64,000 nucleotides of DNA, from contig NC_134033.1 of the NCBI RefSeq assembly GCF_964204645.1, forward strand, positions 4,178,231 to 4,242,230. The letters are read 5' to 3'. Shown piece after piece: positions 624 through 33,459 of this stretch (its first letter is position 1; each line of letters opens with the position of its first letter). The notes under the pieces were generated by a model. It was given only the letters and a program-made list of their open reading frames with translations. It made no database searches and was not told the DNA's origin. The DNA comes from Tubulanus polymorphus (taxonomy: Eukaryota; Animalia; Nemertea). Both the position numbers and the translations under genes were made by a program.

Positions 624-971
624 CATTCAGAAACACTATCTAATTTGTTGGGTTGTTCGGATGAATTCTTCAAATCATGGATAATATATCAATTCGATGA
701 TAAAATGAATATAGATAATTATGGTGAATACTTTCATATTGATCACGTGTTGCCGATTTCTAAATTTGATATGAGTGATGATTATAATAAGAAGCTAATC
801 TGGAACTGGAGAAATTTAAGGCCTTTAGAAAAGAAGGAAAACATTATTAAATCCAATAAACTAGATTTACAGTTATATTTAGATCAACTGGATAAAGCAA
901 AGACATTTGTTGAATTATGGAATAGTATTTCACAGAATCAACCGCATTCTGAGGTTTTGATCAGTGGTTAG
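624..971 (+). pseudogene. HNH endonuclease of the type common in NCLDVs and Polinton-like viruses, 5'-truncated by the LTR
   Basis: LLGCSDEFFKSWIIYQF...NYGEYFHIDHVLP...NWRNLRPL...ENIIKSNK. The frame is open back to 624 (HSETLSNLLGC) with no ATG before the LTR junction. Confidence 0.75.
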
Positions 972-1319
972 AAAGCTGGCAATTCTATTTGAGCTTTGTA
1001 TGTATATAATACATAGCTTTTGCTTACTACTAAAACATATGTTGCCAAATATATCTTGTTTTCAATTCTAAAGAATTAATTAACTTCATCATAAAGAACA
1101 TCTGTGCAGAAGTAATTAGTTTGGTCGAACGTGCGCCACGTTAGCAGTTAGAAATCAACTTTCACATACATGGTACGTATTGGATATTCTCTCTCAAAAC
1201 ACAGTTTACAGTTCTAAATCTAAATGTAAGTACCGTTTTTTGTAGTTATTATGAAGTAGGGAAACCTTTAAACATATTTAAGTATAGTAATTCATTTTCA
1301 CGATATCTTTTAGATTAAA

Positions 1320-2048
1320 ATGGAACACAAAGATCAACCAGAAATTCTAAGCCAACCAACGGATGAGGAACGATTGCTACTGGATAGTGAAACTCAGGAA
1401 TCAATAGAAATGGAGGATGAAACTCTCATAATTGACGAACAAACTTCACAAAAATTACAAGAACATTTGGACTATCATCAAGAAATGGTGAAAATTCTGA
1501 GTGATGTAATACATAATAAACAATTACCGCGCGAACTACAATTACCAAAATTACCAGCAACGCGACTTAAATTGCTGTTGGGACTCAAAGAATCGAAAAC
1601 TAAGAAAATGAGTGGAGAAGAGTTGAACGAGTTTTTAAAATCTAAATTAATCATTGACACAGGACATTTAAACTTTCCGGAAATACAAAGTGTAGAAGTT
1701 ATTTCATTTGCTGAAATTACTGATATCTTAAAAAAAAGTTATAAAACCATATTAAATAGAAAAGCAAATCACCTATGGGACCACATCATTTTCGGGGGTT
1801 ATCTAAATATAGGGTTTTCAATGTTTGATAAAGAAACTGAGGGGATTTCTTGGGGACTGTGGGTTAAAAAGAACATAGATATCAGTGCTGGTTTTGAAAG
1901 AAAACTGAGAAGAGTAGGTAGATTAATGAAATATGAAAAATTCAAAATATTAGGATTAGCATTTAGTGAAGTAGTAAGACATTTACCAGAAATTGAAGAA
2001 ATGATTGGAAACAATCCAGTAATTAAAGAATTATGGACAAAATTATAA
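1320..2048 (+). CDS. Hypothetical viral accessory protein (acidic N-terminus; C-terminal helical domain resembling DUF3102-type HTH)
   Basis: 242-aa ORF with the pattern IFGGYL...SWGLWVKKNIDISAGFERKLRRVGRL. Candidate 5'-UTR intron at 1226-1313 (GTAAGT...CTTTTAG). Confidence 0.6.
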   Translation: MEHKDQPEILSQPTDEERLLLDSETQESIEMEDETLIIDEQTSQKLQEHLDYHQEMVKILSDVIHNKQLPRELQLPKLPATRLKLLLGLKESKTKKMSGEELNEFLKSKLIIDTGHLNFPEIQSVEVISFAEITDILKKSYKTILNRKANHLWDHIIFGGYLNIGFSMFDKETEGISWGLWVKKNIDISAGFERKLRRVGRLMKYEKFKILGLAFSEVVRHLPEIEEMIGNNPVIKELWTKL

Positions 2049-2116
2049 ATTATAATACTGAAGGTCTTAGATATCAAAAATGTAATCTCGATTGTATATA
2101 TCTGTTTTAATATTGT

Positions 2117-2469
2117 ATTGTTTACTGTTAACTGTGTATTGCGTAATAACCGGTCCGATTGAACCGCTTTTCTATTGTTCTCCATTGTTCTACTATTGAT
2201 CGTTGTTAATGGCGGCGGTTGTTCTGTATTGATTGTTTACTGTTAACTAAGTGTTGCGCAATAACCGGTCCGATTGGACCGCATTTCTATTGTTCTCCAT
2301 TGTTCTACTATTGATCGTTGTTGACTGAAACAGCTGCTCAATATTGATTGGTTACATTTCTATGTTTGAATGTTGTAGTTTACAGAATAAAAATATAACT
2401 GTGTATTGCGCAATAACCGGTCCGATTGGACCGCATTTCTATTGTTCTCCATTGTTCTATTATCGATCG
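2117..2469. repeat. Three ~75-90 bp direct repeats with palindromic cores
   Basis: Copies at ~2117-2207, 2232-2322 and 2396-2469. Each carries TTGCG(C/T)AAT and CGGTCC-GATT-G(G/A)ACCG. Confidence 0.9.
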
Positions 2470-2855
2470 CTAAAATTTACATAATAAATATATGTGTTTA
2501 TGAAATAGTAATTCCACCAGTCGTTTCTTTGAATTTATTTTCAGTTGAGGATTTGATATCGAGGATCCAAAATGACTTATCTGGACAGTTATAATTACTG
2601 CTCCTATAGATAGACAATAGTAGTGAGATAATCTAAATCCTAATTTAAATAAAATATAATAAAAATTACATACCTTCAACTATCTATTATTTCTATTATA
2701 TTTTTGATATTTTCTTTTCAAAAGAGAATACTTTATATCACAAATAAAAAATACTTAAAAAACAATAACTAATACTAGAATTCTTTAACTTTAACTATCT
2801 AGTATCATTTGAAGAATACTTATAATACTATTCTTATTAAATTTCTCTAATATAA

Positions 2856-3461
2856 ATGTCTAAGAAATCGAATAAGAATAATATTAAAGTTGAAAAAACT
2901 TTGGAAGATTTAGGTCTAACAGATGATAATGATAATGTGGCAACTAAATGTGATAATAAAATTGATAGTAATATTGATTACGAGTACTATTTATATTGTA
3001 AACATCATCTAGAACTATTGATTGCTGGCGGGAAATCTAAGGACTTCTTAGGAAAAATAATAACTTTTCAAGAACTAGACTCTATGAAACCCGATAAAGT
3101 AATAAAATATTTTAAGATTTATGAAGAGTCAAGATTAGCTAGAATAAACGACTCTATAAGTGATGGTATTGTCAAATGTTATTCAAAATTATGTAACCAG
3201 TTAATACCAATTGATGATGAAAATAAATTATATAATGATTTGAAAAATGACTATTTAGTTATGACTGAATTACAAAAATGGGTTGGATACGCTTCATTTC
3301 AATTAGGATCGGTTATGACGTTGATTTCTACTGGAGTTATAACATTTTCGAACATCAAACCTATGGAATATAAATCAGGTAAGAACGAAACAGATGTACT
3401 ACAACAAAACATCGAAACAGAAAATGAATCAGAACAAAAATTAACTAAAATAAATGAGTGA
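2856..3461 (+). CDS. Conserved Polinton-type hypothetical protein with hydrophobic C-terminal segment
   Basis: 201-aa ORF with TAAATG start. GKSKDFLGK...YFKIYE...LYNDLKND...GSVMTLISTGVIT pattern recalled from related invertebrate elements. Confidence 0.7.
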   Translation: MSKKSNKNNIKVEKTLEDLGLTDDNDNVATKCDNKIDSNIDYEYYLYCKHHLELLIAGGKSKDFLGKIITFQELDSMKPDKVIKYFKIYEESRLARINDSISDGIVKCYSKLCNQLIPIDDENKLYNDLKNDYLVMTELQKWVGYASFQLGSVMTLISTGVITFSNIKPMEYKSGKNETDVLQQNIETENESEQKLTKINE

Positions 3462-3801
3462 TGGCGTTAAGAAAAAGGTTAGATCCGAGAAACAAATTAT
3501 ATGGGCAAGAGAATTAGGTAAAAGATCTTCAGAATTAAAAAAAGCTAAGAAAAAGAAATTAACCGATATAAATGAATCACCTGGTATTGATTCAAATAAT
3601 AATCCATCTAATTCTTCTAATAGTGGAAGAAATAATTACTTATATATTACAATTGGGTTAATCACAATTATTATATTATCCGGTGTAATATATAAATCAA
3701 AATTCAAATCCGATGATAAAGATGATTCTAATGATAATAAACCCATCATACCAGAAAATAAATCAAATGAAAATAAATCTAAAATATTATTAATGGATTA
3801 A
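3454..3801 (+). CDS. Small single-pass membrane protein with basic N-terminus
   Basis: 115 aa with TM segment YLYITIGLITIIILSGVIY. TAAATG start overlaps the upstream ORF. Confidence 0.7.
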   Translation: MSDGVKKKVRSEKQIIWARELGKRSSELKKAKKKKLTDINESPGIDSNNNPSNSSNSGRNNYLYITIGLITIIILSGVIYKSKFKSDDKDDSNDNKPIIPENKSNENKSKILLMD

Positions 3802-3804
3802 AAT

Positions 3805-4893
3805 ATGATGAAAAAAGAACAATATTTAAGAGAGTTATATTATAACCCAGAAAGTGAAGTATCATATTCTAACGTTTCAGAATTATGGAATAAAATTAAA
3901 TCTGATAATAGCAATATAAAATATAGTGAATTAAAATCATGGTTACAAAATCAACCCACATATCAAATTCATAAAAAGATGGATAAAAAATATTTAACAA
4001 GAAAAGTAATGGTTTCATATATTGATCAACAATGGCAAGCTGATTTAATTGACATGAAAAACTTAGAAGAATATAACAAAGGATATTTCTGGATACTAAA
4101 TGTTATAGATATATTCAGTAGATACGCATGGAGTATCCCGATTAAAAATAAAACTGGTATAGAAGTGACAAATGCTTTTAAATCTATATTTAAAGAAGCT
4201 ATTCCAGATAAGATACAATTTGATGAAGGTAAGGAATTCTATAACAAACATTTCAAAAAACTATTATCTGATAACGATGTAGAATATTTTTCAACACATT
4301 CAGATAAAAAAGCATCTGTTATAGAAAGATTTAATAAAACATTGAAAACTAGAATGTGGAAATATTTCACCGCTAATGAAACATATAAATATATCGATGT
4401 GTTAGATGATTTAGTGAAAGGTTATAATAATTCTAAACATGGTTCTATAAATATGAAACCTATACAAGCTAGAAAAGAAGAAAATTCAGAAATAGTTTGG
4501 AATAATTTATATGGAGCATTTGTTACACATGATTTTGGAGAACCTAAATTTAAAATAGGACAACATGTTAGAATTTCTAAATATCGAAAAACATTTTATA
4601 AAGGTTATACCCCTAATTTTACTGAAGAAATATTTAAAATTAAAAAGATAATATTAACTAAACCATTTGTTTATAAATTGTTTGATTTAAAAGATGAAGA
4701 AATATTAGGTTATTCTTATGAACAAGAATTATCATTAGTACCAAATCCAGATGAAATAGAATACAAAATAGAAAAAGTATTGAAAACAAAAACTCTTAAA
4801 GGAAAAAAGTATTCTTTGGTGAAATATAAAGGATACGATGATAAATTTAATGAATGGATTTTATCTAGTAAAATTAAAAGAATAAATGAATAA
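3805..4893 (+). CDS. int: Retroviral-like (rve) integrase with C-terminal chromodomain
   Basis: DDE motifs WQADLIDM, IQFDEGKEF and KASVIERFNKTLK. Chromodomain YKIEKVLK...LVKYKGYDDKFNEWI. ORF intact. Confidence 0.95.
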   Translation: MMKKEQYLRELYYNPESEVSYSNVSELWNKIKSDNSNIKYSELKSWLQNQPTYQIHKKMDKKYLTRKVMVSYIDQQWQADLIDMKNLEEYNKGYFWILNVIDIFSRYAWSIPIKNKTGIEVTNAFKSIFKEAIPDKIQFDEGKEFYNKHFKKLLSDNDVEYFSTHSDKKASVIERFNKTLKTRMWKYFTANETYKYIDVLDDLVKGYNNSKHGSINMKPIQARKEENSEIVWNNLYGAFVTHDFGEPKFKIGQHVRISKYRKTFYKGYTPNFTEEIFKIKKIILTKPFVYKLFDLKDEEILGYSYEQELSLVPNPDEIEYKIEKVLKTKTLKGKKYSLVKYKGYDDKFNEWILSSKIKRINE

Positions 4894-5497
4894 AGATTTA
4901 TTTATATTTGAACCGCATAATATGTTAGTTACTGGAGTTACGAATTGTGGTAAAACACATTTCATATTAGACTTGTTAGAAACTATTTATAAAAATCATT
5001 TTGATAATATAATATTATTCTGCCCAACTTATGAAATGAATGAAACGTATAATAGAGATATAGTTAAGATAAAAAAGTTTATTATATTAGACCCCAAAAC
5101 AGTAAAAGAAAATTTAGATAATTGTATAAAAATTGCATTAGATATTTATAAAGGATCTAATACATTATTTATTATCGATGATTGCGCAAATTTACATGAT
5201 TCTAAAATTAGAGAAAGCGAGTTATGTTATTTAGCTTTCTCTGGTAGACATTTTGGGATAACAACATGGGTTTTAAATCAAAAATATAATTCAATTGTTA
5301 AAGATTTTAGAGAGAATATAAGATTTCTAGTTTTATTTTATAACAAAGATAGAAAATCTATGCAACAATCATTGGAAGAAAATCAAATTATACCTACTGA
5401 ATTACATGATGAATATATGAATAAATTAAAGAATAATAAAGGTTCAAAATTATTACTGAGATTACAATTTCCATATGAATATAAATTTATAAAATAA
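4886..5497 (+). CDS. A32/FtsK-HerA family DNA packaging ATPase
   Basis: Walker A GVTNCGKT, Walker B LFIIDD, arginine finger SGRH and conserved Q (LNQ). ORF intact. Confidence 0.93.
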   Translation: MNKDLFIFEPHNMLVTGVTNCGKTHFILDLLETIYKNHFDNIILFCPTYEMNETYNRDIVKIKKFIILDPKTVKENLDNCIKIALDIYKGSNTLFIIDDCANLHDSKIRESELCYLAFSGRHFGITTWVLNQKYNSIVKDFRENIRFLVLFYNKDRKSMQQSLEENQIIPTELHDEYMNKLKNNKGSKLLLRLQFPYEYKFIK

Positions 5498-5520
5498 CTA
5501 TTTGTATACCTATGTATTAG

Positions 5521-5606
5521 ATACCCTAATACCTAATACCCTAATACCTGATACCCTAATACCTGATACCCTAATACCCCAATACCTGATACCCTATTAG
5601 ATACCT
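5521..5606. repeat. Short tandem repeat (ATACCCTA/ATACCTG units) between convergent genes
   Basis: ataccctaatacctaataccctaatacctgataccctaatacctgataccctaatacccc... Confidence 0.85.
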
Positions 5607-5664
5607 TAAATAATTAAAAACCCCTTTTTTATTTACTATTATTTTATACAATTTTCAACCTTTA

Positions 5665-6612
5665 TTATTCGAGTTTTATATAATCAATTTCTGAATCACT
5701 TTCACTATCAGACGCTAACATCATATTTAAATGCTCTACCGAATCTACATCAACATCTTTATAATTTTTTTTCACCTTTTTCACCTTTTTTACCACACCA
5801 CCAATAGTTGTTTCATTGTTGCGCTTCCTTATCCTTTCTATCATATCATCAAAAGTTTCTTCTTTATGTTTCATAGAATCTTTAATATCATTATGTTTAA
5901 CTGTAACTATATCATCATGTGGGCGTATGGCACCATTTTCATTATCATCTTTATTAGTGTTTGCTCCTAATATTTCATTTACAGTGTTTGATCCTAATAT
6001 TTCATTAGCATCGGTTAAATCTAATTCATCTTTATTAGGTGTTGCTAATAATAAATCTTCATATATTTTTTCACCATTTACTTTTTTATTTGAAACAAAT
6101 TTTGTAACATATCTAAATGGGTGTTCTATAAATTCTCTTAAACCAACACGTTCTATAACATTAGTAATATGTGAATTTGTATTTATATGTTTATTCCAAT
6201 TTGATGGAGCGTTTGAAAATTCACCTTTACAATAATCACAATAATTTCTATTTTTACTAACATTTAATATTATTGCCTTATTATATGTAGAAGGTATTAT
6301 ATTATTTGATGTAGAGGGTATTACAGATGTAGAAGGTATTATGTTATTAGATGTAGAAGGTATCACATTATTAGATGTAGAAGGTATCACATTATTAGAT
6401 GTAGAAGGTATTACATTATTATCAATTACATTACTTAAATTATCAACAACACCACTTTTATTATTATCGATTTCTATCAGTTTAGTTTTATAATTTTTAA
6501 AAATAGGATCAAATATCAAAGCTATATTACAAGGTATTACATAATATAAACCATCATTATTTTCATGTGTATCGATGTATGGAATATGTTTATATACTTT
6601 ACCTCCTTCCAT
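5665..6612 (-). CDS. Hypothetical protein with VIPSTSNN tandem repeats and a C2H2-type zinc finger
   Basis: 315 aa with ~6 copies of an 8-aa (24-bp) repeat at ~6285-6420, and CDYC...NKHINTNSH. TAAATG start. Confidence 0.75.
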   Translation of the reverse strand: MEGGKVYKHIPYIDTHENNDGLYYVIPCNIALIFDPIFKNYKTKLIEIDNNKSGVVDNLSNVIDNNVIPSTSNNVIPSTSNNVIPSTSNNIIPSTSVIPSTSNNIIPSTYNKAIILNVSKNRNYCDYCKGEFSNAPSNWNKHINTNSHITNVIERVGLREFIEHPFRYVTKFVSNKKVNGEKIYEDLLLATPNKDELDLTDANEILGSNTVNEILGANTNKDDNENGAIRPHDDIVTVKHNDIKDSMKHKEETFDDMIERIRKRNNETTIGGVVKKVKKVKKNYKDVDVDSVEHLNMMLASDSESDSEIDYIKLE

Positions 6613-6644
6613 TTATTATATATATTTTTATTAAAGTTAAAATT

Positions 6645-7887
6645 TTAATACATAACACTATCTAATTGTGAATTTACAATATTTAATTGCGCATCAGATA
6701 ATATATAAATATGCATTTTAAAATTTTTGATTCCTTTTTTCTTTGTCATGAATAATTGTATTCCATCTTTTGTATTTTGTAGTTTTTTTCCAGAACCATG
6801 TAATGAATTATCCTCTGTTGTTCTAAAATCTAACCATAATGCATATTTATTGCCGGTATAATAATCAATTTGATTAATATTACAATTTTCAAATGATTTT
6901 ACTTTTTCATTCATAAAATGTTTTTAAATTTCTACCCATTGATCTATCATTCTCATTCCTTGACAAAATATTTTATTTGCTATTCCTTCGATAGTTATTT
7001 CTACTTTTGTTATTTCAGGATTATAATAATTATCAACATTTATTGCGCCATTAGTATACGTTCCAATGGTAAAAAATATTAATATACCTTTAATAGATCT
7101 TCTAGGGAAGTTAATATTCTCATTTATTATTTCATCATTTGCATTAATAGTTACAGTTTTAAATTTATCAATATAATCATATAATAATGAAAATCCTTGA
7201 TTGTATTTAGTTTGAATTATACTTGAAATATTTTCATCAGTTACTGTATCATATTCTAAACATATATTCGATAATTTATAACTCATATCTTTAACAACGC
7301 TAGATATTACAATTTCATTTACAGGAGCAAATGTTATTTCGAATATAATATCTTCTTGAATTGCGTATTTATATAAAGGTGCATTATTATTTATCAATTC
7401 AAAGTCTAATGGAATTTTATATTTGCTTCCATATATACTTTTTATCAATTTATCTACATCATTTGTTAATATTGCGCTATTAGCTTCTGATCTTAATTTA
7501 TTTTGGTTTTCTGATTGGATGCCTTGAAATATCATATTATTTCTATTTTCTTAACCATAAATCTTTATAGTGCATAAATAAATTATAATCATCTAATGAG
7601 AAAACTGTTTCTGGACCAATCTTTATTGTTAACTTTTTAATCAAATATCTTCCAACATTATCAACAACATAATTATTATTATTACCGATTACTTTTATAT
7701 CAGCTGATAAATAAATACTATTTGGAACATAAAAAGTATTTTGTGTTAATCTCGGAATTCTAACATATAAAGTTTCATCGGGATTAATATTTGAAGGGTT
7801 ATGAATAATTATATGATGTGATCTTTCTGCTTTAATAGCATTAGATATTCTATGATTCTTAGAAGGATTGATATAACTCCCACTCAT
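6645..7887 (-). pseudogene. Major capsid protein (double jelly-roll), disrupted
   Basis: Three ORFs join into one MCP (NPSNINPDETLYVRIP...YKDLW; FQGIQS...IPLDFEL...ISLEYD-like NICLEYD...YNPEITKVEITIEG; KYALWLDFRTTEDNSLHGSG...DAQLNI). Frameshift near 7545-7550 and in-frame TAA at 6924-6926 (WVEI*KHF). Confidence 0.85.
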
Positions 7888-7941
7888 TTATTTAACAAAA
7901 AAATTAATTATTTATTTTTTGATATTTTTTGATATCATGGT

Positions 7942-9516
7942 TTACTTGATATTTTTTGATATCATATTCACTAACCCAAAAATAATTGCACTTACAACTG
8001 TAATTAAAAATAAAATAATATGTTCAGCAGCAAAGTTAATAATGTTTCCTGCAGATTTCAATATAAAACCAACAATTGAAGCAATAACTCCTGGTAATGC
8101 TGCAGCAGATTTTTTAGATAGTTCCCATAAATATTTTGCTAATTTCTTTAAACCATCTTTAACTTTATCTTGTATAGAATTATTACTTGGAGGTTTATCT
8201 GGTTTATTAGGAGTGGGAGTAGGAGTAGATTTTAAAGCATTTGATATAGCTAAACCTATTGTTGTAAATAACATAGTAACAGCTGTTAGAATTGAAAGAA
8301 TTGTTATTCCTTCTAATTTAAATAACAATTTTATTCTATCTTTTAATGATATTTCAGAATTTGGTTTAATCAACAAATCTTTAAAAATAACTTTTAATCT
8401 ATTTATATTATAATCATATGATTTTAATAATAATTTAATTTCTTCTTTTTGTAATTCTATGTTATATTCTAAATCATCAATTTCTTTTTCTAAATATGCA
8501 TTTCTTTTTTTAAATTCAATTTCTTCAATAACTTTATTATCTCTATCTAATTTTAGTTGTTCTATTTCTTTATTTTTATCAGTTCTATCTTTTTCTAAAA
8601 ATCTAATTTTAATATCTCTTATACTTTTATCATGTGTAATTTTATCAGATGCAAGTCTTATACTAATAATTTCTTTAATTGCTTTATCAGAAAATATATC
8701 TAAATCTTCTAATTCTTGATCTGTTGCATCAAGTAACCCATTCGGTAAAAGTTTTTCAATTGGAACTTTATTTGATTTAAGTTTACTAGTTTTGGAAGTT
8801 TTATTCCGTAAGTTATCAAAACGTTTTTCTAATTGTGATTGACTTAAATCATTATCAATTTGTTGAGTGTCTCTTCTCGATGTTTCGGGTGTTGAAGATC
8901 TTAATTTATCTCTATTCTCTTCCATTTCTGTTTCTAAATTATTATCAATTGTTTCAAATAATTCATTGATTCTTTGTTTAAATACTCTTTCATTTTTAAT
9001 AATTTCTTCTTGTGTTACATCTTCTATTTCATTACTATTTCTTATTCTTTTAATTCTAGATAGTAATGAGTCAGACTTAAGCAAAGTTGATTCTGCTAAT
9101 ATTTTGTTTTGTTTTTTATAAGAGATATCAATATAATAATCATCTTTCAAACGATAATAATATTCACCATCTAAAAACTTTAATTCTTTTACTAAAAGTC
9201 TGGCACCTCTATCATTTATATTATATCCAGAATTTTCAAATACATGTTTGAAATTATAAATATATTCATTATATTCTAAATTTTGTTTTACTAAATCTGG
9301 ATTTTCATTTTCAGTAGGTATTCTCGATCTAGTTCTTCTATCAAATTCATCTGTTGATTGACCTTTAGAACCACTATCTGCTAAATTAGAATTATATGCT
9401 GATTCATCATCATTATCAATTTTAGCACCTGCATCATTATAATCATCATCAATATATCCTTCATTATCATTTCCCATGTCATCCAATGGAATATTTTCTA
9501 CACCTTCTACATCCAT
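7942..9516 (-). CDS. Coiled-coil protein with C-terminal hydrophobic/amphipathic helices (putative membrane-active virion protein)
   Basis: 524 aa with an acidic N-terminus and long heptad region. Hydrophobic segments GITILSILTAVTMLFTTIGLAI, ALPGVIASIVGFIL and IILFLITVVSAIIFGLV. Confidence 0.75.
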   Translation of the reverse strand: MDVEGVENIPLDDMGNDNEGYIDDDYNDAGAKIDNDDESAYNSNLADSGSKGQSTDEFDRRTRSRIPTENENPDLVKQNLEYNEYIYNFKHVFENSGYNINDRGARLLVKELKFLDGEYYYRLKDDYYIDISYKKQNKILAESTLLKSDSLLSRIKRIRNSNEIEDVTQEEIIKNERVFKQRINELFETIDNNLETEMEENRDKLRSSTPETSRRDTQQIDNDLSQSQLEKRFDNLRNKTSKTSKLKSNKVPIEKLLPNGLLDATDQELEDLDIFSDKAIKEIISIRLASDKITHDKSIRDIKIRFLEKDRTDKNKEIEQLKLDRDNKVIEEIEFKKRNAYLEKEIDDLEYNIELQKEEIKLLLKSYDYNINRLKVIFKDLLIKPNSEISLKDRIKLLFKLEGITILSILTAVTMLFTTIGLAISNALKSTPTPTPNKPDKPPSNNSIQDKVKDGLKKLAKYLWELSKKSAAALPGVIASIVGFILKSAGNIINFAAEHIILFLITVVSAIIFGLVNMISKNIK

Positions 9517-9532
9517 TTACATAATAAAAAAA

Positions 9533-10922
9533 TTAAAATTTAAAATATAATATTCCTCCGATTACAATTCCTATACAAGTTATAGCTAATTTAGTATTTT
9601 CATGTGATTTATTATCATCATTTAGTTTAATTATATCATGTTGAATTTTATCAGTTTTTATATCTTCTGATGTATTGTAATCTTTTATTTTAGAATCATT
9701 ATCAAATTTAATATTCTTAGTTTTAGTTTCTGTTGATTGAATGTGTTTTTTATTTTTTTCACCTTCCATTAATTTTGGAGCAGTAATAATCTTTTTATTT
9801 ATATCATTTAATCCAAATGAATTATTTATTGTTGCAGTTTTAATTAGATTATTATAACCAATTATGTTTCCCATCTTTAATAATAAATCATTAGAAATAA
9901 TTAATAGATTAGGACCTATACAATAATTAAGTCTTACATGAGATTTATCTAAATAATTTTGATATCTTATAATGTTTTCTGGAATCGATCTATTTTTATC
10001 ATTATGTATGGAATCTTCAAATAAAACTTTAAATTGTTTTTGTGTATCAAATGATGTATTTAAATTTCCTATTATTGGGGATCTTGTTTCAACTTGTGAT
10101 CCTAGAATACAAATCAAATAAGTTCTAATAGATTGATTTATTCTTTCTATACCTGATTTAGTAAAACCTTCACTATTTTCTAAAATAAAATAAACCCAAC
10201 CATTATTGTTTTCTTGTTTTAAATTATCATAAAATTTTGGTAATTTATTGAAATTTAATGTTTCTAAATCCTTTGTTTCTATTTTACCATAACCTAATTT
10301 TTTATTATAGATATTATAAAAACTATTAGATGGTATGGGAAGTGCACAATATTCTGCAATCTTTTTAGGGCAAGGAAGTGATCTTATTGTTCCAATTTTT
10401 GTTCTAAAATCAGAATTATTTATATCTATATTAAATTCATTACAAATTTTATAAAACTTAGATAGATTAATATTATTATCTAATTCTTTGAAATACCTAG
10501 ATCCTGGTAAAGCGCACTCTAATTCATTTAATATTATTCTGATTTGAAAGTATGTATGAAATCTAAATAAACTTTGAATTAATTTATATTTAGAATTATT
10601 CAAATGATCATTCCAACTAATTCCACATCCTGTTGTTGCACAATAAACAGCAAAATTTAATTGGTTCTGCCAATACTTCATATTAGATTTTAATAACCAT
10701 TGTTTTTCATCTTTCAATTTTTTAAAATTAATCAAATATACATGAAATATATTTTCCATCTTTGCATTAAAATTATTAGTTTCAGTAACATAAATTTCTA
10801 AATTAGTTAATGAATCTAAAACTTCATTTCTATATGTAATATCTTTATTAAAATCTATTGCTGGAATATTATATTTAATTGATTTATTATATCGGAAAGT
10901 TTTTTGGAAAACTATCTACCAT
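9533..10922 (-). pseudogene. Conserved Polinton-type protein with C-terminal TM anchor; +1 frameshift near the start
   Basis: YWQNQLNFAVYCATTGCGIS...FRFHTYFQIRIIL...ILGSQVETRS. The true start is TAAATG at 10922 (MVDSFPK). One extra A in the run at 10900-10905 separates it from the frame of the 408-aa ORF. C-terminal LAITCIGIVIGGILYF. Confidence 0.75.
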
Positions 10923-10939
10923 TTATATAACTAAAAAAA

Positions 10940-11374
10940 TTAATAATTTATTAATTCTTTTAATAATTTATCTTGTTCTTCAACTGTTATATGACCATTC
11001 AAACTTATTATATAATCTAGTGTGTTCTTTAATTTATTTATTTCTTTTATATTAGTTTTAATTTTTTCTTTATTACTTTTTATATTTAATTTTGAACTTA
11101 TACCAGTTAAAACACTTGAACTTAATCCTAATACACCAATTGATATAGCTAAAGGTGTTATTGGGCTGAATATTGCTAAAAATGTTATTACAGAACTAAT
11201 TGTAACCGAACCACTTATAATCAAATAATATATAATTTTACTTTTTAAATATTTTTTCTTTTTTATCTTTAAGTCACTTTCAAATTCTAATATTTGTTTT
11301 TCTAAATATGTTTTTAATTTAGTTTTATTTATATCATGAGGAATAATATCAATACTATCAACTTTATCTTCCAT
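10940..11374 (-). CDS. Two-TM membrane protein with flanking coiled coils
   Basis: 144 aa containing IIYYLIISGSVTISSVITFLAIFSPITPLAISIGVLGLSSSVLTGI. TAAATG start. Confidence 0.75.
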   Translation of the reverse strand: MEDKVDSIDIIPHDINKTKLKTYLEKQILEFESDLKIKKKKYLKSKIIYYLIISGSVTISSVITFLAIFSPITPLAISIGVLGLSSSVLTGISSKLNIKSNKEKIKTNIKEINKLKNTLDYIISLNGHITVEEQDKLLKELINY

Positions 11375-11393
11375 TTATTTAGAATAAAAATTA

Positions 11394-11811
11394 CTAATTA
11401 GTAAACTTATAAGCAACAAATATAACAATAACAGTTCCACCTAAAATCCATATTATTTCATATTTCTGTTGTTCTTTACTTGGGGTATAATAATCTGATA
11501 ATTTAGGTTTGTATAGATGTAATTTTTCTTTATTGGTTACCGCGTTATATAAACTCATTGCATCATCAACTGATTGAAAATATCTGTGTGAAATCTTCTG
11601 ATCATATAATTCTTTATTGATGTAATCCATATAGTCTTGTCTCTTTTCTCTATATTCTTCTGCAGCTTTATTGTATTTCTCTAACGCTATGTCTTCTTTG
11701 TTCTCCTAATGAACTATTTTTATCAATATGTTTAAATAAATAACCACCACCAGTAAATGCTAAAGCGTTAACAATTGCTGATCCTATAATAGTTATAATT
11801 GCAGAAGCCAT
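11394..11811 (-). pseudogene. Small membrane/coiled-coil virion protein, frameshifted
   Basis: TAAATG start at 11811 gives MASAIITIIGSAIVNALAFTGGGYLF...EQRRH. A frameshift near 11690 leads into IALEKYNKAAEEYREKRQDYMDYIN...IIWILGGTVIVIFVAYKF. Confidence 0.75.
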
Positions 11812-11836
11812 TTATTTAGCAAAAAAAATTATGCAT

Positions 11837-12058
11837 TTATATGGGAGGAATATATTTTTGTTTTTCCAAATAATCAATAGTTAAATTAGATAAAGTAACT
11901 GCTAATGTTAATTTTAGAATATCATTGATATCAAATCTATCAACATTAACACTTCCCATTTTGAATACTTTTTTTAATACCATTGAATAACCAACAGTTC
12001 CAACTGATAGTAATGCGCCATTATATAATCCAGTTATTATCCACTTATTATCACTCAT
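11837..12058 (-). CDS. Small hydrophobic protein
   Basis: 73 aa with two hydrophobic helices, ending DYLEKQKYIP. TAAATG start. Confidence 0.7.
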   Translation of the reverse strand: MSDNKWIITGLYNGALLSVGTVGYSMVLKKVFKMGSVNVDRFDINDILKLTLAVTLSNLTIDYLEKQKYIPPI

Positions 12059-12418
12059 TTATTTATCAAAAAAATTACTATCATCAAAATATTTAGTTAA
12101 CTTATTTATGATTATTTCAACATTTATTTCATTACTAGTTTTATGATTATCATATATTTCAATTATTATTTTTTTAATATCATCGATGATAAAATCTTCA
12201 TCTAATTCATAAAATCTTAAAGATTCTCTAATTAAATTAGTAATCTTTTCTACATTTAAAGTTTCTTTATCTATTGTTGTTTCATACTCAAATGTTGTTT
12301 CATTAGAAAATACAATATTTTTGATATGTGTTATTACATCATTAATATTAAATTTCATCTCTTTCTCACGTTTAAAATCAAATCCAAAACATATACTCGG
12401 TCCAACAGTTATATTCAT
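12059..12418 (-). CDS. Hypothetical protein
   Basis: 119-aa ORF packed in the gene array, TAAATG start. Confidence 0.6.
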   Translation of the reverse strand: MNITVGPSICFGFDFKREKEMKFNINDVITHIKNIVFSNETTFEYETTIDKETLNVEKITNLIRESLRFYELDEDFIIDDIKKIIIEIYDNHKTSNEINVEIIINKLTKYFDDSNFFDK

Positions 12419-12434
12419 TTATATATCAAAAAAA

Positions 12435-13190
12435 TTACTCTCTACATCTTATAACTAATTCATATATCACAGGAAAGTTATTTAAATCAATTAAGTATCC
12501 ATTATGATTTCTTATTTCTAATTTAAAATTATTAAATTTAGGAATGCAAGGTTTAAAATCACATTCTGTTAAATTATAATTTATTTGAGTTCCAAATTGT
12601 TTAACATTTTTTAGCGGTAAAATATTTAGTATACTAGAACTACAAATTGTTTCTTTAGTTGCTTCGAAAGTTTTTGTAGGCTCGATTAAATTGCAATAAA
12701 TATAAAAGTGTGTAAAAGGTATTATATTTGAGCTGCCTTCTGCGTTTCCAGTAACTGTAAGTGGTTTAATTCCTAACATTTTAGCCAGTGGTTTGTTTAC
12801 CATAAATTTATGTTGTTCATTAGATATCTTTATTCTTATTTTATTAGTACTATCAATTTTATTAAATTTAATTTCAAATACAGAACTACCCCCGATTTTC
12901 AACCGAGCTCTTCTATTAATTTCCTGCGCTAATGATTCTAAATTATATAATCCTGGTTTTAAAAATATATGAAACCATTTATCTTTATTTCTCATATAAA
13001 TCATAAACCCTCTATGTTCAAAAGTTTTATCCGATACATTGTAAAAAGAATTACATAAACTTATATTAACTAATTTTAAATCTACACAATTCTTAAATTC
13101 TCTATCTAATTGTACTAGTAAATTATGAGATTTATAATTTGTAAGCCTTCTAGAATCAACAAATATTCTGTATTCTTTTAATTCCGCCAT
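12435..13190 (-). CDS. Minor capsid protein (penton, single jelly-roll)
   Basis: IFVDSR...NSFYNV...PGLYNLESL...LAKMLG...FYIYCNLIE...LEIRNHNGYLIDLNNFPVIYELVIR pattern typical of Polinton mCP. Confidence 0.8.
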   Translation of the reverse strand: MAELKEYRIFVDSRRLTNYKSHNLLVQLDREFKNCVDLKLVNISLCNSFYNVSDKTFEHRGFMIYMRNKDKWFHIFLKPGLYNLESLAQEINRRARLKIGGSSVFEIKFNKIDSTNKIRIKISNEQHKFMVNKPLAKMLGIKPLTVTGNAEGSSNIIPFTHFYIYCNLIEPTKTFEATKETICSSSILNILPLKNVKQFGTQINYNLTECDFKPCIPKFNNFKLEIRNHNGYLIDLNNFPVIYELVIRCRE

Positions 13191-13207
13191 TTATTTTACA
13201 TATTTTC

Positions 13208-13549
13208 TTATTCGAAATCTATTTCATGGTGCCCTTTTTCATTCTTACCTTTGTATATGAAATAGAAATCTCCAGAACATAATTCTTCTAGATCTTCACT
13301 TGATAATCTATGAAATCTATCTGGTAAATAAGTTCTGAATTTATGTGTATTTCCTTTTAATCCTTCATATTCTAAATGAATTACTAATTTATCTCCATAT
13401 TTATTAGTAATTGTTTCAATGTTAGTAATTAAATATTTCTTGTGAATTGTTAACTCAGTTAGTTTTTTAAATTTATAATCTACAGATTTGACGCTTGAAG
13501 TATCTTTAATTCTATCTAAGAATTCATTGTGTACTTGTTTACTCTCCAT
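13208..13549 (-). CDS. Small beta-rich protein next to PolB, possible OB-fold ssDNA-binding protein
   Basis: FKKLTEL...KYLITNIETITNKYGDKLVIHLE...RTYLPDRF. The function is inferred from position and pattern only. Confidence 0.55.
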   Translation of the reverse strand: MESKQVHNEFLDRIKDTSSVKSVDYKFKKLTELTIHKKYLITNIETITNKYGDKLVIHLEYEGLKGNTHKFRTYLPDRFHRLSSEDLEELCSGDFYFIYKGKNEKGHHEIDFE

Positions 13550-13577
13550 TTATTATATAAATTTTTATTGAAATTGA

Positions 13578-16500
13578 TTAACACGTTAGAATCCTTTTCA
13601 TAATTTCATTTTCTTTTGTTTCTTCTCTTTTGAATTTTATATATTCATCTAAATTGCAACCATAGGCGACTGTGTGGATTCCATCATCTAAAATATATCT
13701 TTTATCATCAAATGGATTTAGACTTATCTTCTCTATCTCTTCAATATACATTTCATGATCTTCAGATCTTAAACATTTCATCTTATGTTTTCTAACTTCT
13801 TCATTAAATATACAATTGATGTAATCTTTGAAATGAATATTCTTTTCTACTACACTTTTGGTTATTCCTTTTAACTTTTTAGCTTCATGTTCTTTAGTTT
13901 TATATGAATACATTTTAGATCTAATACCTATGAACTCTATCATTTCTTCACCACCTAATTCATCTTTGAATTTACCGGGAACTTTTTTATTATCATTGCT
14001 AAACAATTCATGATCTTTAGGATAGTTACTGAAATCAAAATGGTGTTTTAATATTTTTAAGTCTTTTGTTATGTTATCACTTTTTATCTTTAATATATAA
14101 CTGTCAGTATCTAGATATAATATTTCTATATTTTTTTCTCCAAAATTGGGTTGCAATACATTATAATAGAATTCATACATCAATAGCTTTGAAATTTCTA
14201 AAACTGCAGCTCCAACATAAATAGGTTTATTGAACTTCATAGAAGTTCTTTTTAATTTAACTGCAGCTAAATTTTCATCGAATATTCTGTTACCTTTGAA
14301 TTTCGGATACGATTGTAAATGTCTAATTCTTTTACCATTACTAACTAACTCAATATCATTTCTATTTCTTATGTTTTCACATGTTTTTCCATAGAACGCA
14401 TTATTCATCAGTTTAAAGTAATCCTTCTCAAAATCAGTTTTAGATTTAGTTCTCTGTGTAGTATTAAAATCTATATATTTTTCTAACCACTTAGATTGAT
14501 TAAATGAAATATATCTATGTACTTTTTTTAATATCATTCCTTGATTCAAATAAAACTTCAACATTCTATAATGTACTACATAATTATATTTATCTTCTTG
14601 AGTTACCATTAACTTTTCAGTATGAATATGATTATCGGGTTTAATTCTTTTTTGATAATTTGATAATTCTTCATGTTTAACAGTTTTATGTTCGGGACAA
14701 TATGCTAGATTTCTAGATTTGAATTTAATATTTTCAGGGTATTCTAAATCTACAACGAAGAAGTAACCAGTATCTGAATCATCTGCAATATCTAGGATTC
14801 TTTTCTTCCAATCAAATTTATCAATTTGTAAAACTTCAGTTATTTCAAACATCCCATAAGGTTGTGGTTCCATCATTGCCCAACCATAAAGGTTATTTGC
14901 ATCTATATATAATAATTTATATCCAGGATTATCATTTACATTGAAATATCTATCACCCAATACACCTGAAACACCTCCTCTTATAGATTTTTCAAATAAT
15001 AGTAATTGATCTATATTTGTTAACAAATCCATTTTTATATTTGTAAATTTTAATCCACAATCCCATGTTAATCCTGGTGATGAATAACAATGACAAGGAT
15101 CAATGTTAAAATATTTTAGGTTTACATCTCTAAACCTTTCGAATATATCGGTTAATAATAATACATCTGATTTTAAATATAAATCTACTAATTGTCCATG
15201 ATTTTCTATTTCAAAATGATTCCAAATATTCAATGTTCTATTATATACTTCATCTTTAACATATTCATTTTTTAATTCATCATAGAATTGTTCTTTCAAT
15301 AATTCAGTTATTTTAAAATCATTATGATTTTTATAGAAAGAATATGGAATTGCACCTTTATATCTCATTAATTTAAAATCATCATAATTTGGGTAATATT
15401 CTTTTAATATCTTTAATTCATCATCAACTAATGATTTTGATAAGTTATCTAATGAACTATTTAAAAATCTATATGAATCTATAAATCTTAGACAACCAAA
15501 TTGGAATGATATATAATTCTCAGATGTTTTAGCTAACATTCTAAATTTATAAGTTGGTATTTTATCTTTTGATTTATTTGAATTTAATATTTCTATTTCA
15601 TTATTAATTTCTTCTATTTTATGACACAGTTGTTTGATAAATAAATGTGCATCATATCCTGATAGATTATGAAATATAACTGGTACAAAGTTAATTTTCT
15701 TAGCTTGTAAGTTACAATTCTCATGTGCAGCGCCTCTAAACTTTCCATTCAAATGATCATGGTCTCTTACTTTTTTATCTTTATAATTAAATATCTTTTC
15801 ACAATAATAACATTTATCTGCAAACGCAAATACTTCGTTATCTTCTTCTATCATTATAATTTCTATATTTGTATTCAATAATTTACTAAATCTTATTTCA
15901 TATTCAATTAATAAGTCACAAAAATGATTGATAACATTTTCATTTCTATAATGATAATATTCACTTTCAATTAGTTCTGGATAATCAGATTTTATATATA
16001 ACCCGAAAGCAGCAGCTGATTGATGAATCTTTTTAATAGTATTTGTTTTTGGTGGTTCTTCTGAATAATCACTTTCATTAGAATTTAATTTCTTTCTTTT
16101 ATAATATATATCTTTTCTATCTTTATCTGTTAATTCTTTATTTAATGATTCAAAATCTCCATATATTACAAATGGTACTTTATTTTTGTAATCATATTTT
16201 TTGAATTCTAATATTTTATCTTTTTCATTTGGTAAAACTAATTTACAATAATCATGATTATCACATAGTTGTTTATGATTTAATAATGCACCTTCAGTTC
16301 TGAATTTATGTAAACATTTTCTACATAGATATATTTTATTATCAAAATCATTTTCTGATTTAAAAAATAAATCGATTTGTTTAATCCACATGTAATGATT
16401 CTCATAATATAGTATATCTATAACATCATTTGAATCATAATCTTTTGATAGGTATAAAGGTTCTAATGTATAATGTTAAATATTATTTCCTTTTGTATTT

Positions 16501-17609
16501 GGTAATTTAATTAAATCAAATACATTTATCTTTAAATTATTATCTCTTTCTATTTTTGGAATATTTTTAATTCTAACAGGATACTTATCTATCTTATAAT
16601 TATTTTCAAATTGTTTATAATGAGTTAATCTAAAACTATGTGTAATATCTTCTGTTGGATGTAAACAACTTATTATAGCCCATATAAAACATTTATTATC
16701 AAAATTTTGTATATTTATTACACCATTAGTTTTAAATGGTAATTTAATATAACTTGTTCCATTTATACTATCATCTTTATAATATGATAAATTATTTTCA
16801 TCAATTGGTTTTGATTTAGTTAACTTATTATATTTTGTGTTATAAACATGTAAAGTTATAAATATTATCTCATCAAATATTAAACCAGATCCTTCAAAAT
16901 ATTTCTCTTCTATTTTAGTTTTTACTTCATTATAACATTTATTTAATTTATCATCTATATGTTGTTTAGATATAATATGTTGTGAATGAGAATTTATATT
17001 ATATATTGGTTTATCTTCAGATTTTATAAACTTTACTTTAACTGATATACTAATTTTAGGATATTCAACATCTGTAATTATTTTTATTATTTCTTTCATA
17101 TTTTCTAAATGTTTTTTATTTTCTTCTAATGTTTTTCCTTTATGAAATTTAAACTCGATAGCTGCTGGACCAATATCACTTTTAAATGCTTCGGTTATCT
17201 CTATATCTTTTTTATTATCTAATGAATTAATATAATTTCTTACATCTTCCATGTATGGTCTTTTATTGTTTAATTTATTTTTTATTCTTTTAATTGTCTT
17301 CTGTTTCTTATCATTATCTTTATCAAAATAATCTTCACCTAAAATATCATTATTCTTATTTCTAATATGACTTATAGATTTTAAATGTTCTTTATAATAT
17401 CTTTTATCACTGAATGATTGATTACATGTATCACATTTATATGTTTCTTTTTCATTCTTTAATTCTTCTAATTTAGTTTCTAATATATCATCCTTATATT
17501 CTAGTTTCAATTTATTCTCTAAATGTGTTATAGTTTTATTGTGTCTTGCTTTTTGAGACTTGTCTATATCGATATTACATGTTGGGCAGTAGTATTTATT
17601 TGCTTCCTT
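13578..17609 (-). pseudogene. polB: Protein-primed family B DNA polymerase polyprotein (ZnF - terminal-protein region - vOTU-like - exonuclease with EndoVII-like insert - polymerase), with one nonsense codon and a probable lost start codon
   Basis: Exo YGDFES, FHNLSGYD, YLKSDV; Pol YIDANNLYGWAM, KLMNNAFYGK, YLDTDS. EndoVII-like CYYC...VRDHDHLNGKFRGAAHENCNL. ORFs 16476-17510 and 13578-16391 are in the same frame, separated only by TAA at 16476-16478. The frame is open to AAG at 17607-17609, which aligns with the ATG at 30638 of the related element. Confidence 0.93.
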
Positions 17610-17689
17610 TTTAATACTATATTTTTTATTAAAATTGATTTTAGAAGTTCAATGATTTAAATGTTATTCATATATGTGAATATTTTAAG

Positions 17690-18096
17690 AGTAATAGGGG
17701 TTTAGTTGTTTCATATCAAAGGTTTAATGATCGAGTTCATTAATAACAAAATATTAAAAGTAATTAAAAAACTATAATATATTTTCATAACCGTGTGTAT
17801 TTCAGTTGAACAATAGAATAATTATTATCATTTGAATATATTTGATTATATAAATTTGTGTATTGTAATTAAATCAATTGGTCGCGGAGCGGAGCGGTAG
17901 CGAAGCGGAGCGACCAATTGATTTAATACAATATGCTTTTTATATTATTAATATCTTAGAATAAATATTTAGTTTTAATATAAAATACACACGGTTATGA
18001 AAATGTATTATAGTTTTTTAATTACTTTTAATATTTTGTTTTTTAATGGGCTCGACCGTTCGACCTTTGGTATGAAACAACTAAACCCCTATTACT
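17690..18096. repeat. Terminal ~407-bp imperfect palindrome (fold-back) of the Polinton-like element
   Basis: 17690-~17800 is the reverse complement of ~17985-18096. Inner stem TTAAATCAATTGGTCGC / GCGACCAATTGATTTAA surrounds a GC-rich apex. Confidence 0.95.
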
Positions 18097-18604: not shown

Positions 18605-18733
18605 GGGGCCAGTTGCTCAAAAGTTGGTTAAAGATAACCGGCCGTTAAATACCATAGTAACAATGAAATTTCAATTGTCACCATATCAACCAACCACTGG
18701 TTAACTCCAACCAACTTTTGAGCAACCGGCCCC
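18605..18733. mobile_element. Short MITE
   Basis: TIRs GGGGCCAGTTGCTCAAAAGTTGGTT / AACCAACTTTTGAGCAACCGGCCCC. Confidence 0.75.
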
Positions 18734-30154: not shown

Positions 30155-30485
30155 AGTAATAGGGATAATAGGCTTTCAAGCCAAAGGTCGAACGGTCGAG
30201 CTCATAAAAAATGAAAATTATGAAAATAATAACAATTTCTACTTGAATTAGTCACGAAACTCATAAAAAATGAAAAATAATTCTCACACACTCGAATTTA
30301 TTTTTCATTTTTACTCGCTAGAAAAAAGTGTGAGTGAAATAAATTCGAGCGCGCGAGAATTATTTTTCATTTTCTATGAGTTTCACTCCTAATTCAAGTA
30401 GAAATTGTTATTATTTTCATGTTTTTCATTTTTAATGAACTCGACCATTCAACCTTTGATATGAAAGCCCATTACCCCTATTACT
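30155..30485. repeat. Terminal ~331-bp imperfect palindrome of the mini-element
   Basis: 30155-~30302 is the reverse complement of ~30337-30485. Confidence 0.95.
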
Positions 30486-31078
30486 CTTAAAATATTCATA
30501 TACATGAATAAAATATATATATGAATAACATATAAATTGATAGATTATTCAATATAAAAGTCTGAGTGAAATAATTCATATTTAAAAAATTGAATATTTA
30601 TATTTGAATGAGTTTTAATAAAAATTTTGTTATAAAAATGAAGAAAGAAGAAGAAGAACCCAACTTTGAAATCGAAATCAATGAAAACAATAAATCATTT
30701 TCACAGTTTTACATTAAAAATTATATTTCAGTCACAAATTTAGTGTCCGCCAGACATTATAAAATTGAAAACATTACTATGATTAATCAACTCTTTTATT
30801 AATGATAAGTGTAAATACATAATTGAATATGATTTATAATTTTCCAAATATTTATGATAAATCTGTTAGATAAATAGATATTGAAACAGAAATATATATG
30901 ATAAAACTATTTATATTACTTTCTTGGCAAGAATCTTGGATTCTTACTCGTACGTCTAGTACATAGATATATAAATTAGTTTTATAATAATAAAAAACAT
31001 AACATTATTAATCTAGATATAGAAATAGTTATAATATTATCTATTTTTATATTTTCAACCAATTTAACAATCTATTGC

Positions 31079-31605: not shown

Positions 31606-31763
31606 ATCACTTTTCCCCGTTGGGATGAAACCATCAGTTTATTTAAGAGAAAAATTAAACAGTTCATAAAATATTTGCTAGTTTTTAATTAAATATTTTA
31701 TAATCATTTTAAAAATATTAAACTTTTAAATGATTAAATCAAATAACAATTAAATTTACAACC

Positions 31764-32072
31764 AAACAATTTAACATTTCAACAGTCTAACAATTTAACA
31801 TTTCAACTGTCAAACAATTTATCATTTCAACTGTCAAACAATTTAACATTTCAACTGTCAAACAATTTATCATTTCAACAGTCGAACAATTTATCATTTC
31901 AACTGTCAAACAATTTATCATTTCAACTGTCAAACAATTTATCATTTCAGCTGTCTTATCATTTCAACTGTCAAACAATTTATCATTTCAACTGTCAAAC
32001 AATTTATCATTTCAACTGTCAAACAATTTATCATTTCAACTGTCAAACAATTTATCATTTCAACTGTCAAAC
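31764..32072. repeat. 24-bp tandem minisatellite (~13 copies)
   Basis: Unit AAACAATTTATCATTTCAACTGTC. Confidence 0.95.
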
Positions 32073-33459
32073 GATATCACAGAGATAGATTTCTGTTTTC
32101 AATTATTTTTTCTGGCGGACACTAAATTTGTTGCTGAAATATAATTTTTAATGTAAAACTGTGAAAATGATTTATTGGTTTCATTGATTTCGATTTTAAA
32201 GTTGGGTTCTTCTTCCTCTTTCTTCATTTTTATAACAAAATTTTTATTAAAACGAATTTTTATTTGAACGAATTTGCCAAATCTTACTTAACCCTGGGAT
32301 ACCCACACATACTTCTGACAGTAGGGCATACCCCATATTTATTTTTTTCAGTTCATTTGGGTCCCTTATGACCAATCAATATCAGTTTTGGGTATATTTT
32401 CACATCAACATGCTTTTTGCGAGGGGTCACATATGACCCCCAACTGCTTCATTATTAGTTAAGAGTACCTAAATATTTTCAGAGAAACTTCATAATATGA
32501 AAAAGTGCATCCTTTGCCCAGTGTTCCATATATGACCCCAATTCGTTGATTGAAAACGTACAAGCTACGTTTTGGCTATGGGTCATATAGGGTGGTAAAT
32601 TTAATTTATGGAGCGCCACCATTTCTACCCGTTCAGACATGTCGATACAATATCGTAATTTCTAAGTGAAAAACGTTTTCTTTAAGAATAATTAAAATCT
32701 GACTAACAGATCCGCTCGAAAATTTAGAACCGAATCGGTCTTTTGGTTCGTCTAAATTGGTCAGTAATCTAAAATACTCAACAAATTCAGAACAGATCTG
32801 GATCAGTTTCGTATGGTGGCTGATTCGAGCTATTCTAAAAAAAAATTCGACCGATGAAACGATTAAACAATTTTCATATTCGTTTTTTTTCTATTTAACG
32901 CGCGGGAATTCAAAAAGTTTGGTTTGTCTCGCGCGATTGAACGAAAAATATTGAATTCACGCGCGGGAAAACCGCCAATGTGAAAAATTTTTTATCGTTG
33001 CTCCAGCCGTGCAGAAAATATATTAGTATGGCCCGAATCAGCCACCATAGCTTTTGGTTGGTCTAAATACGTCAGTGTTGAAAAAGAATGGGCCAATTTA
33101 GAACGAGCCATTCGCAAGTTGTGCACCCTCGGTCCGTTCTAAATTCGAACGGACTAAATTTACACGGACTACATTTTTACGGACTAAATTAAGTAACACA
33201 GTGTGAACACGGCTGATAAATGCTAATCTCTTAATCGTAAACTTTCCCCGCAAGAAACTAACGAAATAGTTTTTGACCTACCGGTGCAGATGATCAGAAG
33301 AAAAAATCGATCCGCGAAGGATTGGCGCGACATCTTAAACACAACTCGATTGGCAACTCGTAAATGAGATCGAGTAGAACGACTTTTGCCATCTTATACG
33401 GTAAGATATCGTAACCTGTTATTATCTTCACCAGATATCACAGGCTGTTCGCGAGGCGT

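Follow-up and report, generated by a model that had tools for sequence, protein, structure and literature searches.

Terminal fold-backs with a wobble-marked, arm-specific block in two related Polinton-type elements of an animal genome: a candidate self-priming end

The stretch of DNA analysed here (the window, 64 kb) contains an AT-rich region from approximately 620 to 18096 that constitutes a Polinton/Maverick element, E1, whose other end lies outside the window. Its visible gene set comprises an rve integrase with a chromodomain (3805-4893, plus strand; PF00665, E 1.8e-9), an A32-type packaging ATPase (4886-5497, plus strand; PF04665, E 7.3e-12), a probable major capsid gene present in this copy as three ORF pieces (6645-7887, minus strand), only the first of which shows a weak match to Capsid_N (E 0.005), and a polymerase of family PF03175 that also carries an endonuclease VII-like domain. 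The polymerase (pPolB) gene is split over two frames of the minus strand: the N-terminal piece (16476-17510) encodes zinc fingers, the terminal-protein (D1) domain with S208, and the start of the vOTU domain with D271 and C274, while the main piece (13578-16391; PF03175, E 2.5e-15) carries the endonuclease VII/HNH domain, which scores just below the family cut-off (PF02945, 23.2 compared to 23.6 bits). Behind pPolB lies a 113-aa ORF (13208-13549, minus strand), for which phi29-type single-strand binding proteins are a weak lead (score 0.84, family on 44% of members). The first visible part of E1 (620-971), which has no Pfam match, is presumably a fragment of an HNH endonuclease, judging by its HIDH motif; it matches positions 4458-4762 of the related locus L001, where it is located downstream of pPolB, the gene order differing between E1 and L001. 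Among the 18 E1 ORFs scanned from this incomplete copy, the left part of which lies outside the window, there was no Pfam match to an adenain-type protease, to the HUH Rep/NS1 nickase family, or to a Vsr domain. Vsr, a T:G nickase, occurs in some mollusc pPolB2 proteins according to the accessible part of one report (10.1101/2023.08.22.554363).

S208, D271, and C274 are invariant in 46 aligned polymerases. In a structure model, S208 is located between the second helix (182-205) and the last strand (211-223) of a beta-sheet/two-helix domain. The eight structures most similar to this domain are all Y-family polymerases (Z 8.3, rmsd 2.8, 103 aligned), and the available text of PMC11071308 gives the same arrangement for the terminal-protein domain of pPolB. 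Since this domain is retained, protein priming was not lost, and the fold-back described below is no substitute for a missing primer.

The second element, E2 (30155 to approximately 32260), is a short derivative, related to E1, in which no Polinton core genes were recognised. Both elements contain 24-bp tandem arrays (31723-32080 in E2; 6271-6439 in E1, inside a 315-aa ORF). The left TIR of E2, approximately 620 bp in all, consists of a fold-back and a remaining part at 30486-30773, of which 30612-30773 matches the remnant of the right TIR (32094-32253) at 94%; read depth falls past approximately 30781, and the outer part of the right TIR, with any second fold-back, is absent here. Shortly past this truncated TIR, TTAACCCT at 32279-32290 resembles a piggyBac-type end. 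For E1, the probable full TIR of approximately 600 bp spans 17496-18096, with the fold-back forming its outer two thirds; we infer its inner boundary from a depth step in bin 17494-17547 and from the loose ends that contigs of X2 and X3, both from one sample, have at 17496. The raw reads used were approximately 12% of run X6, and contigs of X1-X3, which also cover the E1 fold-back, came from another study. Depth and contig ends suggest that full E1 copies probably carry the fold-back at both ends.

The first-pass annotation described both elements as ending in a long fold-back bounded by AGTAATAGGG...CCCTATTACT, and this was borne out for each of them. The E1 fold-back (407 bp, 17690-18096) begins with its inner arm at 17690 and ends with its outer arm at the terminus, 18096, and its G.T strand, the one whose 3' end is the terminus, is the plus strand; the E2 fold-back (331 bp, 30155-30485) has its terminus at 30155 and the minus strand as its G.T strand. 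Within the window, the boundary motif occurs only at 17690 and 30155 and its reverse complement only at 18096 and 30485. The approximately 35 bases beyond the opposite boundaries are shared by the elements (17655-17689 matching 30486-30520), and 17690 and 30485 are therefore the inner sides of the fold-backs. Folding with RNA parameters gave -202.6 kcal/mol for E1 and -204.8 kcal/mol for E2, corresponding to z-scores of -26 and -21 (20 mononucleotide shuffles each). The predicted fold reaches the terminus exactly in both elements, with the last base paired and the first ten bases perfectly paired. An apical segment of the E1 fold-back (17886-17912) consists of G+C-rich GCGGA-like repeats within the AT-rich stem and has no counterpart in E2, whose loop varies in length among the X6 reads.

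The reads confirm AGT...ACT termini, which are of the AG...CT type known from Polintons. Run X6 contains 560 loose-ended reads at 18096, which continue into unrelated sequence (agreement 0.35), and 1500 such reads at 30155 plus 540 at 30154 (agreement 0.35 and 0.34). Positions 18096 and 30155 are thus the true termini of many copies. A closed telomere of the poxvirus type, proposed earlier as one analogy, finds no support in the copies seen, all of which are integrated.

The most informative part of the stem is a block of 21 bases at stem positions 27-47. As the first-pass annotation had noticed, differences between the arms are shared by the two elements; we find exactly four, at stem positions 27, 35, 39, and 47, where the outer arm has C and the inner arm T in both E1 (outer block 18050-18070, minus strand; inner block 17716-17736, plus strand) and E2 (outer block 30181-30201, plus strand; inner block 30439-30459, minus strand). 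It is only on the strand whose 3' end is free that these C/T differences can still pair. Between E1 and E2, the outer blocks are identical at 21 of 21 positions and the inner blocks at 19 of 21, and at both differing inner-arm positions (17725 and 17730) the window copy is in the minority, 73% of reads having another base. GGTCGA occurs twice in the outer block (positions 32 and 40), one occurrence being retained in the E2 inner block, and the block may be a protein-binding site.

The stem around the block behaves differently. At stem positions 53-112, E1 and E2 are identical at 36 of 62 and 36 of 68 positions, which is chance level (shuffles 52 +/- 4%), whereas the arms within each element match at 58 of 61 and 53 of 60 positions, in agreement with the earlier remark that much of the stem differs between the elements yet pairs within each; at stem positions 13-19, six positions have changed jointly in both arms. 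The claim that selection acts on a folded single strand is supported, mainly by the block, but the covariation elsewhere is no independent proof because arm-to-arm copying explains it equally well. Such copying is central to an explanation that we consider unlikely, in which the fold-back is a by-product: the end was duplicated long ago in a single template switch, the arms were subsequently copied onto each other, and strand-biased mutation (C-to-T and A-to-G on the exposed strand) or chance produced the wobbles. Arm copying would account for the covariation without any selection; however, having tracked divergence at positions 13-19 and 53-112, it should also have erased the four differences lying between, and both lineages keep them, the other positions of the block being unaltered. 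That copying has kept up with full divergence around the block and yet left the block intact is the best evidence for selection.

The by-product explanation also bears on the wobbles counted over whole stems, since both types of deamination yield G.T on the same strand. On the 3'-end strand, the G.T:A.C ratio is 9:2 in E1 and 12:3 in E2; the direction of the bias is as first described, the original manual counts having been approximately 6:1 and 11:2. The pooled bias of 21:5 (p=0.0025) becomes 17:5 when shared sites are counted once (p=0.017), and p rises to 0.041 after two E1 wobbles missing from most reads are also removed, with a private A.C at 17730 and the private or polymorphic E2 sites retained. 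At 17725, 17730, 18005, and 18049, the window copy has a base that most reads lack, so that two G.T and one A.C of E1 are private to the window copy, and several E2 wobbles are likewise private or polymorphic (30254, 30352, 30374, 30286, 30290, 30165, and 30170). Taken alone, the four shared sites give p = 0.125. CpG decay is strand-symmetric, and it does not by itself account for the bias, a possibility raised at the outset, as two of the four shared sites and 13 of the 21 G.T pairs lie outside CpG. The remaining 8 of 21 lie in CpG and the ratio outside CpG is 13:5 (two-sided p approximately 0.1), which favours the by-product explanation, as does a nearby, unrelated 129-bp palindromic MITE-like element (18605-18733) with ten A.C to one G.T on the plus strand (its G.T strand being the minus strand), mostly outside CpG. 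This palindrome suggests that small palindromic elements may commonly show a wobble bias. Two other fold-back or inverted-repeat elements in host DNA (39381-39815 and 32812-33049) have G.T:A.C ratios of 3:3 and 7:3 on the plus strand. The whole-stem bias is thus real, but modest and not unique to the fold-backs. Strand-biased mutation is opposed by two further considerations: strand displacement would leave the 5'-terminal part exposed for the longest time, so that the bias would be expected on the opposite strand, and read differences in X6 (A>G 44, T>C 33, C>T 37, G>A 34) are without strong strand bias.

The fold could also act as RNA. In this improbable alternative, transcription outward and antisense to pPolB would produce a long hairpin rich in G.U pairs, which would either be a source of small RNAs or regulate the element. 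Tolerance of G.U is typical of RNA helices, and the energy difference between the strands is greater with RNA parameters (26 kcal/mol for E1 and 33 kcal/mol for E2) than with DNA parameters (6.5 and 16 kcal/mol). The 3'-end strand is the more stable one with DNA parameters as well (-122.6 compared to -116.1 in E1, -125.7 compared to -109.9 in E2), although the gain over the first 52 pairs of E1 is small (-42.7 compared to -40.1, more with RNA parameters). Against a transcript, the end of the fold coincides exactly with the DNA terminus, although nothing would oblige a transcript to end there; the distance of the block from the tip (27-47 bp) is that of the auxiliary origin sites of adenoviruses; and no Rfam family was matched at the gathering score, two weak miRNA matches falling far below it.

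Read counts at the block bear on the polarity of the ends. On the E2 inner arm, the outer-type base is found in 1063 of 2448 reads at 30451 and in 720 of 1572 at 30439 (X6), some outer arms probably having been mapped there because the E2 outer arm itself has further differences. Outer arms outnumber inner flanks approximately two- to threefold, deletion joints are frequent (X6), and opposite-strand joints (13-42 reads) occur at 17749-17772. Position 17690 is absent from the six X6 loose-end piles listed, the smallest of which has 372 reads, compared with 560 at 18096. Among the counts listed, the reads, which are unphased, fit one fixed polarity, and they are most simply explained if outer-type arms lie next to host DNA and inner-type arms next to the element. 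Resolution of the AAV type inverts the hairpin and gives flip and flop, as described in the accessible section of PMC1131931; such inversion was not seen in the unphased X6 reads, among the counts listed, and a frequent flip/flop is disfavoured.

Some of the same reads could come from another source. At 30485, depth drops by approximately 1100 (from 2680 to 1577), and 681 reads run there into random, unrelated sequence, which also fits a fixed polarity; these read ends could instead be the ends of short MITE-like units. Their presence, an outer-type arm depth of approximately 3200-3400 compared to 1577 at the inner flank, and joints such as 30312 to 30439 (93 reads), which would represent shortened units, are the basis for regarding the fold-back as a MITE-like family derivative inserted at, or fused to, the element tip. 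We consider this very improbable: neither copy has a TSD (TTTAAG/TATATC and ATTACC/CTTAAA), the inner flank is common to E1 and E2, the depth of the E1 fold-back (approximately 1180-1620) is not above that of the adjoining TIR (approximately 1540-1660), and there is no older AGTAAT terminus inside. An independent MITE with its own TSDs, against which the first-pass annotation had cautioned, is thus not found at either copy, the flanks being different and the inner flank shared, but short MITE-like derivatives may be present elsewhere in the genome. The many internally deleted hairpin variants (joints of 30-152 reads, among those listed) fit the by-product explanation.

Related polymerase loci were compared with E1 in a set of 109, consisting of the best 80 of the 579 that were confirmed in the part of the metagenomes scanned, together with 29 of 127 viral candidates. 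None of the 109, mostly fragments in which both TIRs are visible only in L018 and L107, has a terminal fold-back, which is also as the by-product explanation would have it. As far as these two controls show, the fold-back is lineage-specific: L018 and L107 have related polymerases, and unlike in E1 and E2, where the outer 330-410 bp of the TIR are self-folding, their TIRs end without a fold-back. L018 is a complete 15-kb Polinton with AGTAGT termini, TTAGGG-like runs in its TIRs (segments 1-720 and 14611-15051), and an internal palindrome at 250-415. The closest locus among those listed, L001 (79%), starts inside pPolB, and a 56%-identical polymerase filed under Sulfurimonas (P0013) is probably eukaryotic contamination of a bacterial assembly. 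Of 120 homologues, 107 have the endonuclease VII motif, as do 63 of the 109 loci, L018 and L107 among them; the idea that this domain is a dedicated partner of the fold-back was therefore rejected. The block pattern had no matches in viral contigs, and a single-protein locus search yielded five candidates, none of which was confirmed. A looser tip pattern occurs in at least 111 loci, and in two of these 111 its reverse complement is also present, in the opposite order.

We tentatively propose, at a probability that we place a little short of even, that the fold-back has been selected on the 3' single strand, where it probably self-primes, and that the block likely marks the true end. Protein-primed strand displacement, as expected from pPolB biology, would release a full-length single strand, the 3' end of which would fold onto the inner arm to give a recessed 3'-OH on a long template; a B-family polymerase could extend this end without awaiting the far TIR. 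Copying through the turn would yield a dimer junction whose two arms are of different type, one C and the other T. If the C-type arm were cut at its tip, with the integrase, the HNH/EndoVII domain of the polymerase, and the small HNH protein as candidate enzymes, a unit genome of unchanged polarity would be released; the remaining piece could rebuild its end from the TIR sequence (200-290 bp) that extends past the fold-back. No change other than C-to-T would alter the duplex site of the inner arm and yet still pair (as T.G) in the folded 3' strand, for which reason both versions of the block would be conserved; an asymmetric cut at the C-type arm that keeps polarity would explain this conservation. 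Repeated copying through the fold-back would also account for the joint changes of the two arms in the rest of the stem. The proposal is favoured by the block, by the parallel divergence of the arms at positions 13-19 and 53-112, by the end of the fold at the exact terminus, by the greater stability of the 3'-end strand, and by read counts that fit a fixed polarity.

The fold-back could alternatively have been selected on single-stranded DNA without priming the genome, either capping the 3' end, serving the repair of nibbled ends with the inner arm as template, or forming a local duplex origin in place of the panhandle. We regard this as rather unlikely, even though the terminal-protein domain is intact and the apparent fixed polarity would follow without any resolvase. 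Precedents are found in Streptomyces telomeres, which are repaired by fold-back extension (accessible part of PMC5449611), and in adenovirus, where displaced strands rebuild the origin by forming a panhandle (available excerpt of PMC12116113). In phi29, however, recessed 3' ends are good primers and are extended, whereas 5' overhangs markedly weaken protein-primed origins (PMC4150772), and this behaviour favours self-priming over a local panhandle; with the first ten bases perfectly paired, extension would also be hard to avoid. Self-priming itself has points against it. With the terminal-protein domain and vOTU residues kept, no second primer is needed; the occurrence of the endonuclease VII motif in the fold-back-less L018 and L107 leaves the proposal without a special partner; the wobble bias comes from two copies and partly from private changes; and the terminal palindromes of a recent preprint, discussed below, prefer genes other than pPolB.

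Among known systems, E1 resembles Polintons/Mavericks with a PF03175-type pPolB of the alpha class, sharing with them, as far as the accessible parts of the sources describe (PMC8502044; PMC11071308), the TP (D1) and vOTU (D2) domains, the rve integrase, the ATPase, and a probable capsid gene. Its AG...CT termini and a TIR within 100-1500 bp are likewise Polinton features according to the consulted part of 10.1101/2023.08.22.554363. The first-pass annotation overstated the contrast with the standard Polinton model: the element keeps TIRs of approximately 600 bp and a terminal-protein domain, and a 2026 preprint on related viruses (bioRxiv 10.64898/2026.07.28.741278) has already described terminal palindromes and proposed hairpin priming for them. 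In the portion of that preprint available, terminal palindromes are described for endogenous virophages (subtypes 1, 2, 5, and 6) and for PLV subtype 4 of Halocafeteria seosinensis, preferentially with non-pPolB genes, and hairpin priming is proposed. As in E1 and E2, the palindrome there is located at the TIR tip next to host DNA, and an rve integrase is present; it measures 52 nt in the figured subtype and belongs to virophages and PLVs of a protist, compared to 331-407 nt here in an animal element with a terminal-protein-bearing pPolB, and the same portion describes neither a strand-biased wobble nor an arm-specific block.

Hairpin telomeres of parvoviruses offer a second parallel. At the left end of MVM, a small conserved mismatch between the arms makes one arm active and keeps one orientation, through asymmetric resolution of the junction. 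The predicted 3' fold-back of E1 would be able to prime like the AAV ITR, as far as the accessible text of PMC1131931 describes it, but E1, unlike parvoviruses, is double-stranded, integrates, and keeps protein priming. Streptomyces telomeres similarly combine a terminal protein with a folded 3' strand of approximately 250-330 nt and repair the end by fold-back extension; in the parts of PMC5449611 and PMC13685816 available, they have several short palindromes with G:A loops, an internal origin, and Tap, whereas here there is a single long stem with T.G wobbles and a B polymerase.

A literature search of openly accessible main texts found no report of a terminal fold-back with strand-biased wobbles in a Polinton of an animal. 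Terminal palindromes and the hairpin-priming idea are already known, and the wobble-marked fold-back in an animal pPolB element is new as far as searched. More specifically, and with more doubt than attaches to self-priming as such, we suggest a hybrid cycle in an animal Polinton family, combining protein priming at open ends with parvovirus-like self-priming on displaced strands, in which the four T.G wobbles might form a strand-specific code: the single strand could still fold, but in the duplex an end would be read in the outer arm alone. If true, one element would link protein-primed and rolling-hairpin replication, and the palindromic ends of protist virophages would be extended to animal elements with a full pPolB. 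The start of the second strand in Polintons is not shown in the literature searched, the racket model resting on TIR pairing and protein priming. The sequence specifies which strand must fold and contains a 21-base site by which the true and the internal end are distinguished, and hairpin priming and end recognition are therefore testable with short DNAs.

Elsewhere in the window, GPCR, lectin, and CUB ORFs point to an animal as the host, and a duplication with a spacing of 10.57 kb (40159-43822 and 50727-54397) carries in each copy a stop-free 1041-aa ORF for an LDLa-LRR-7TM receptor.
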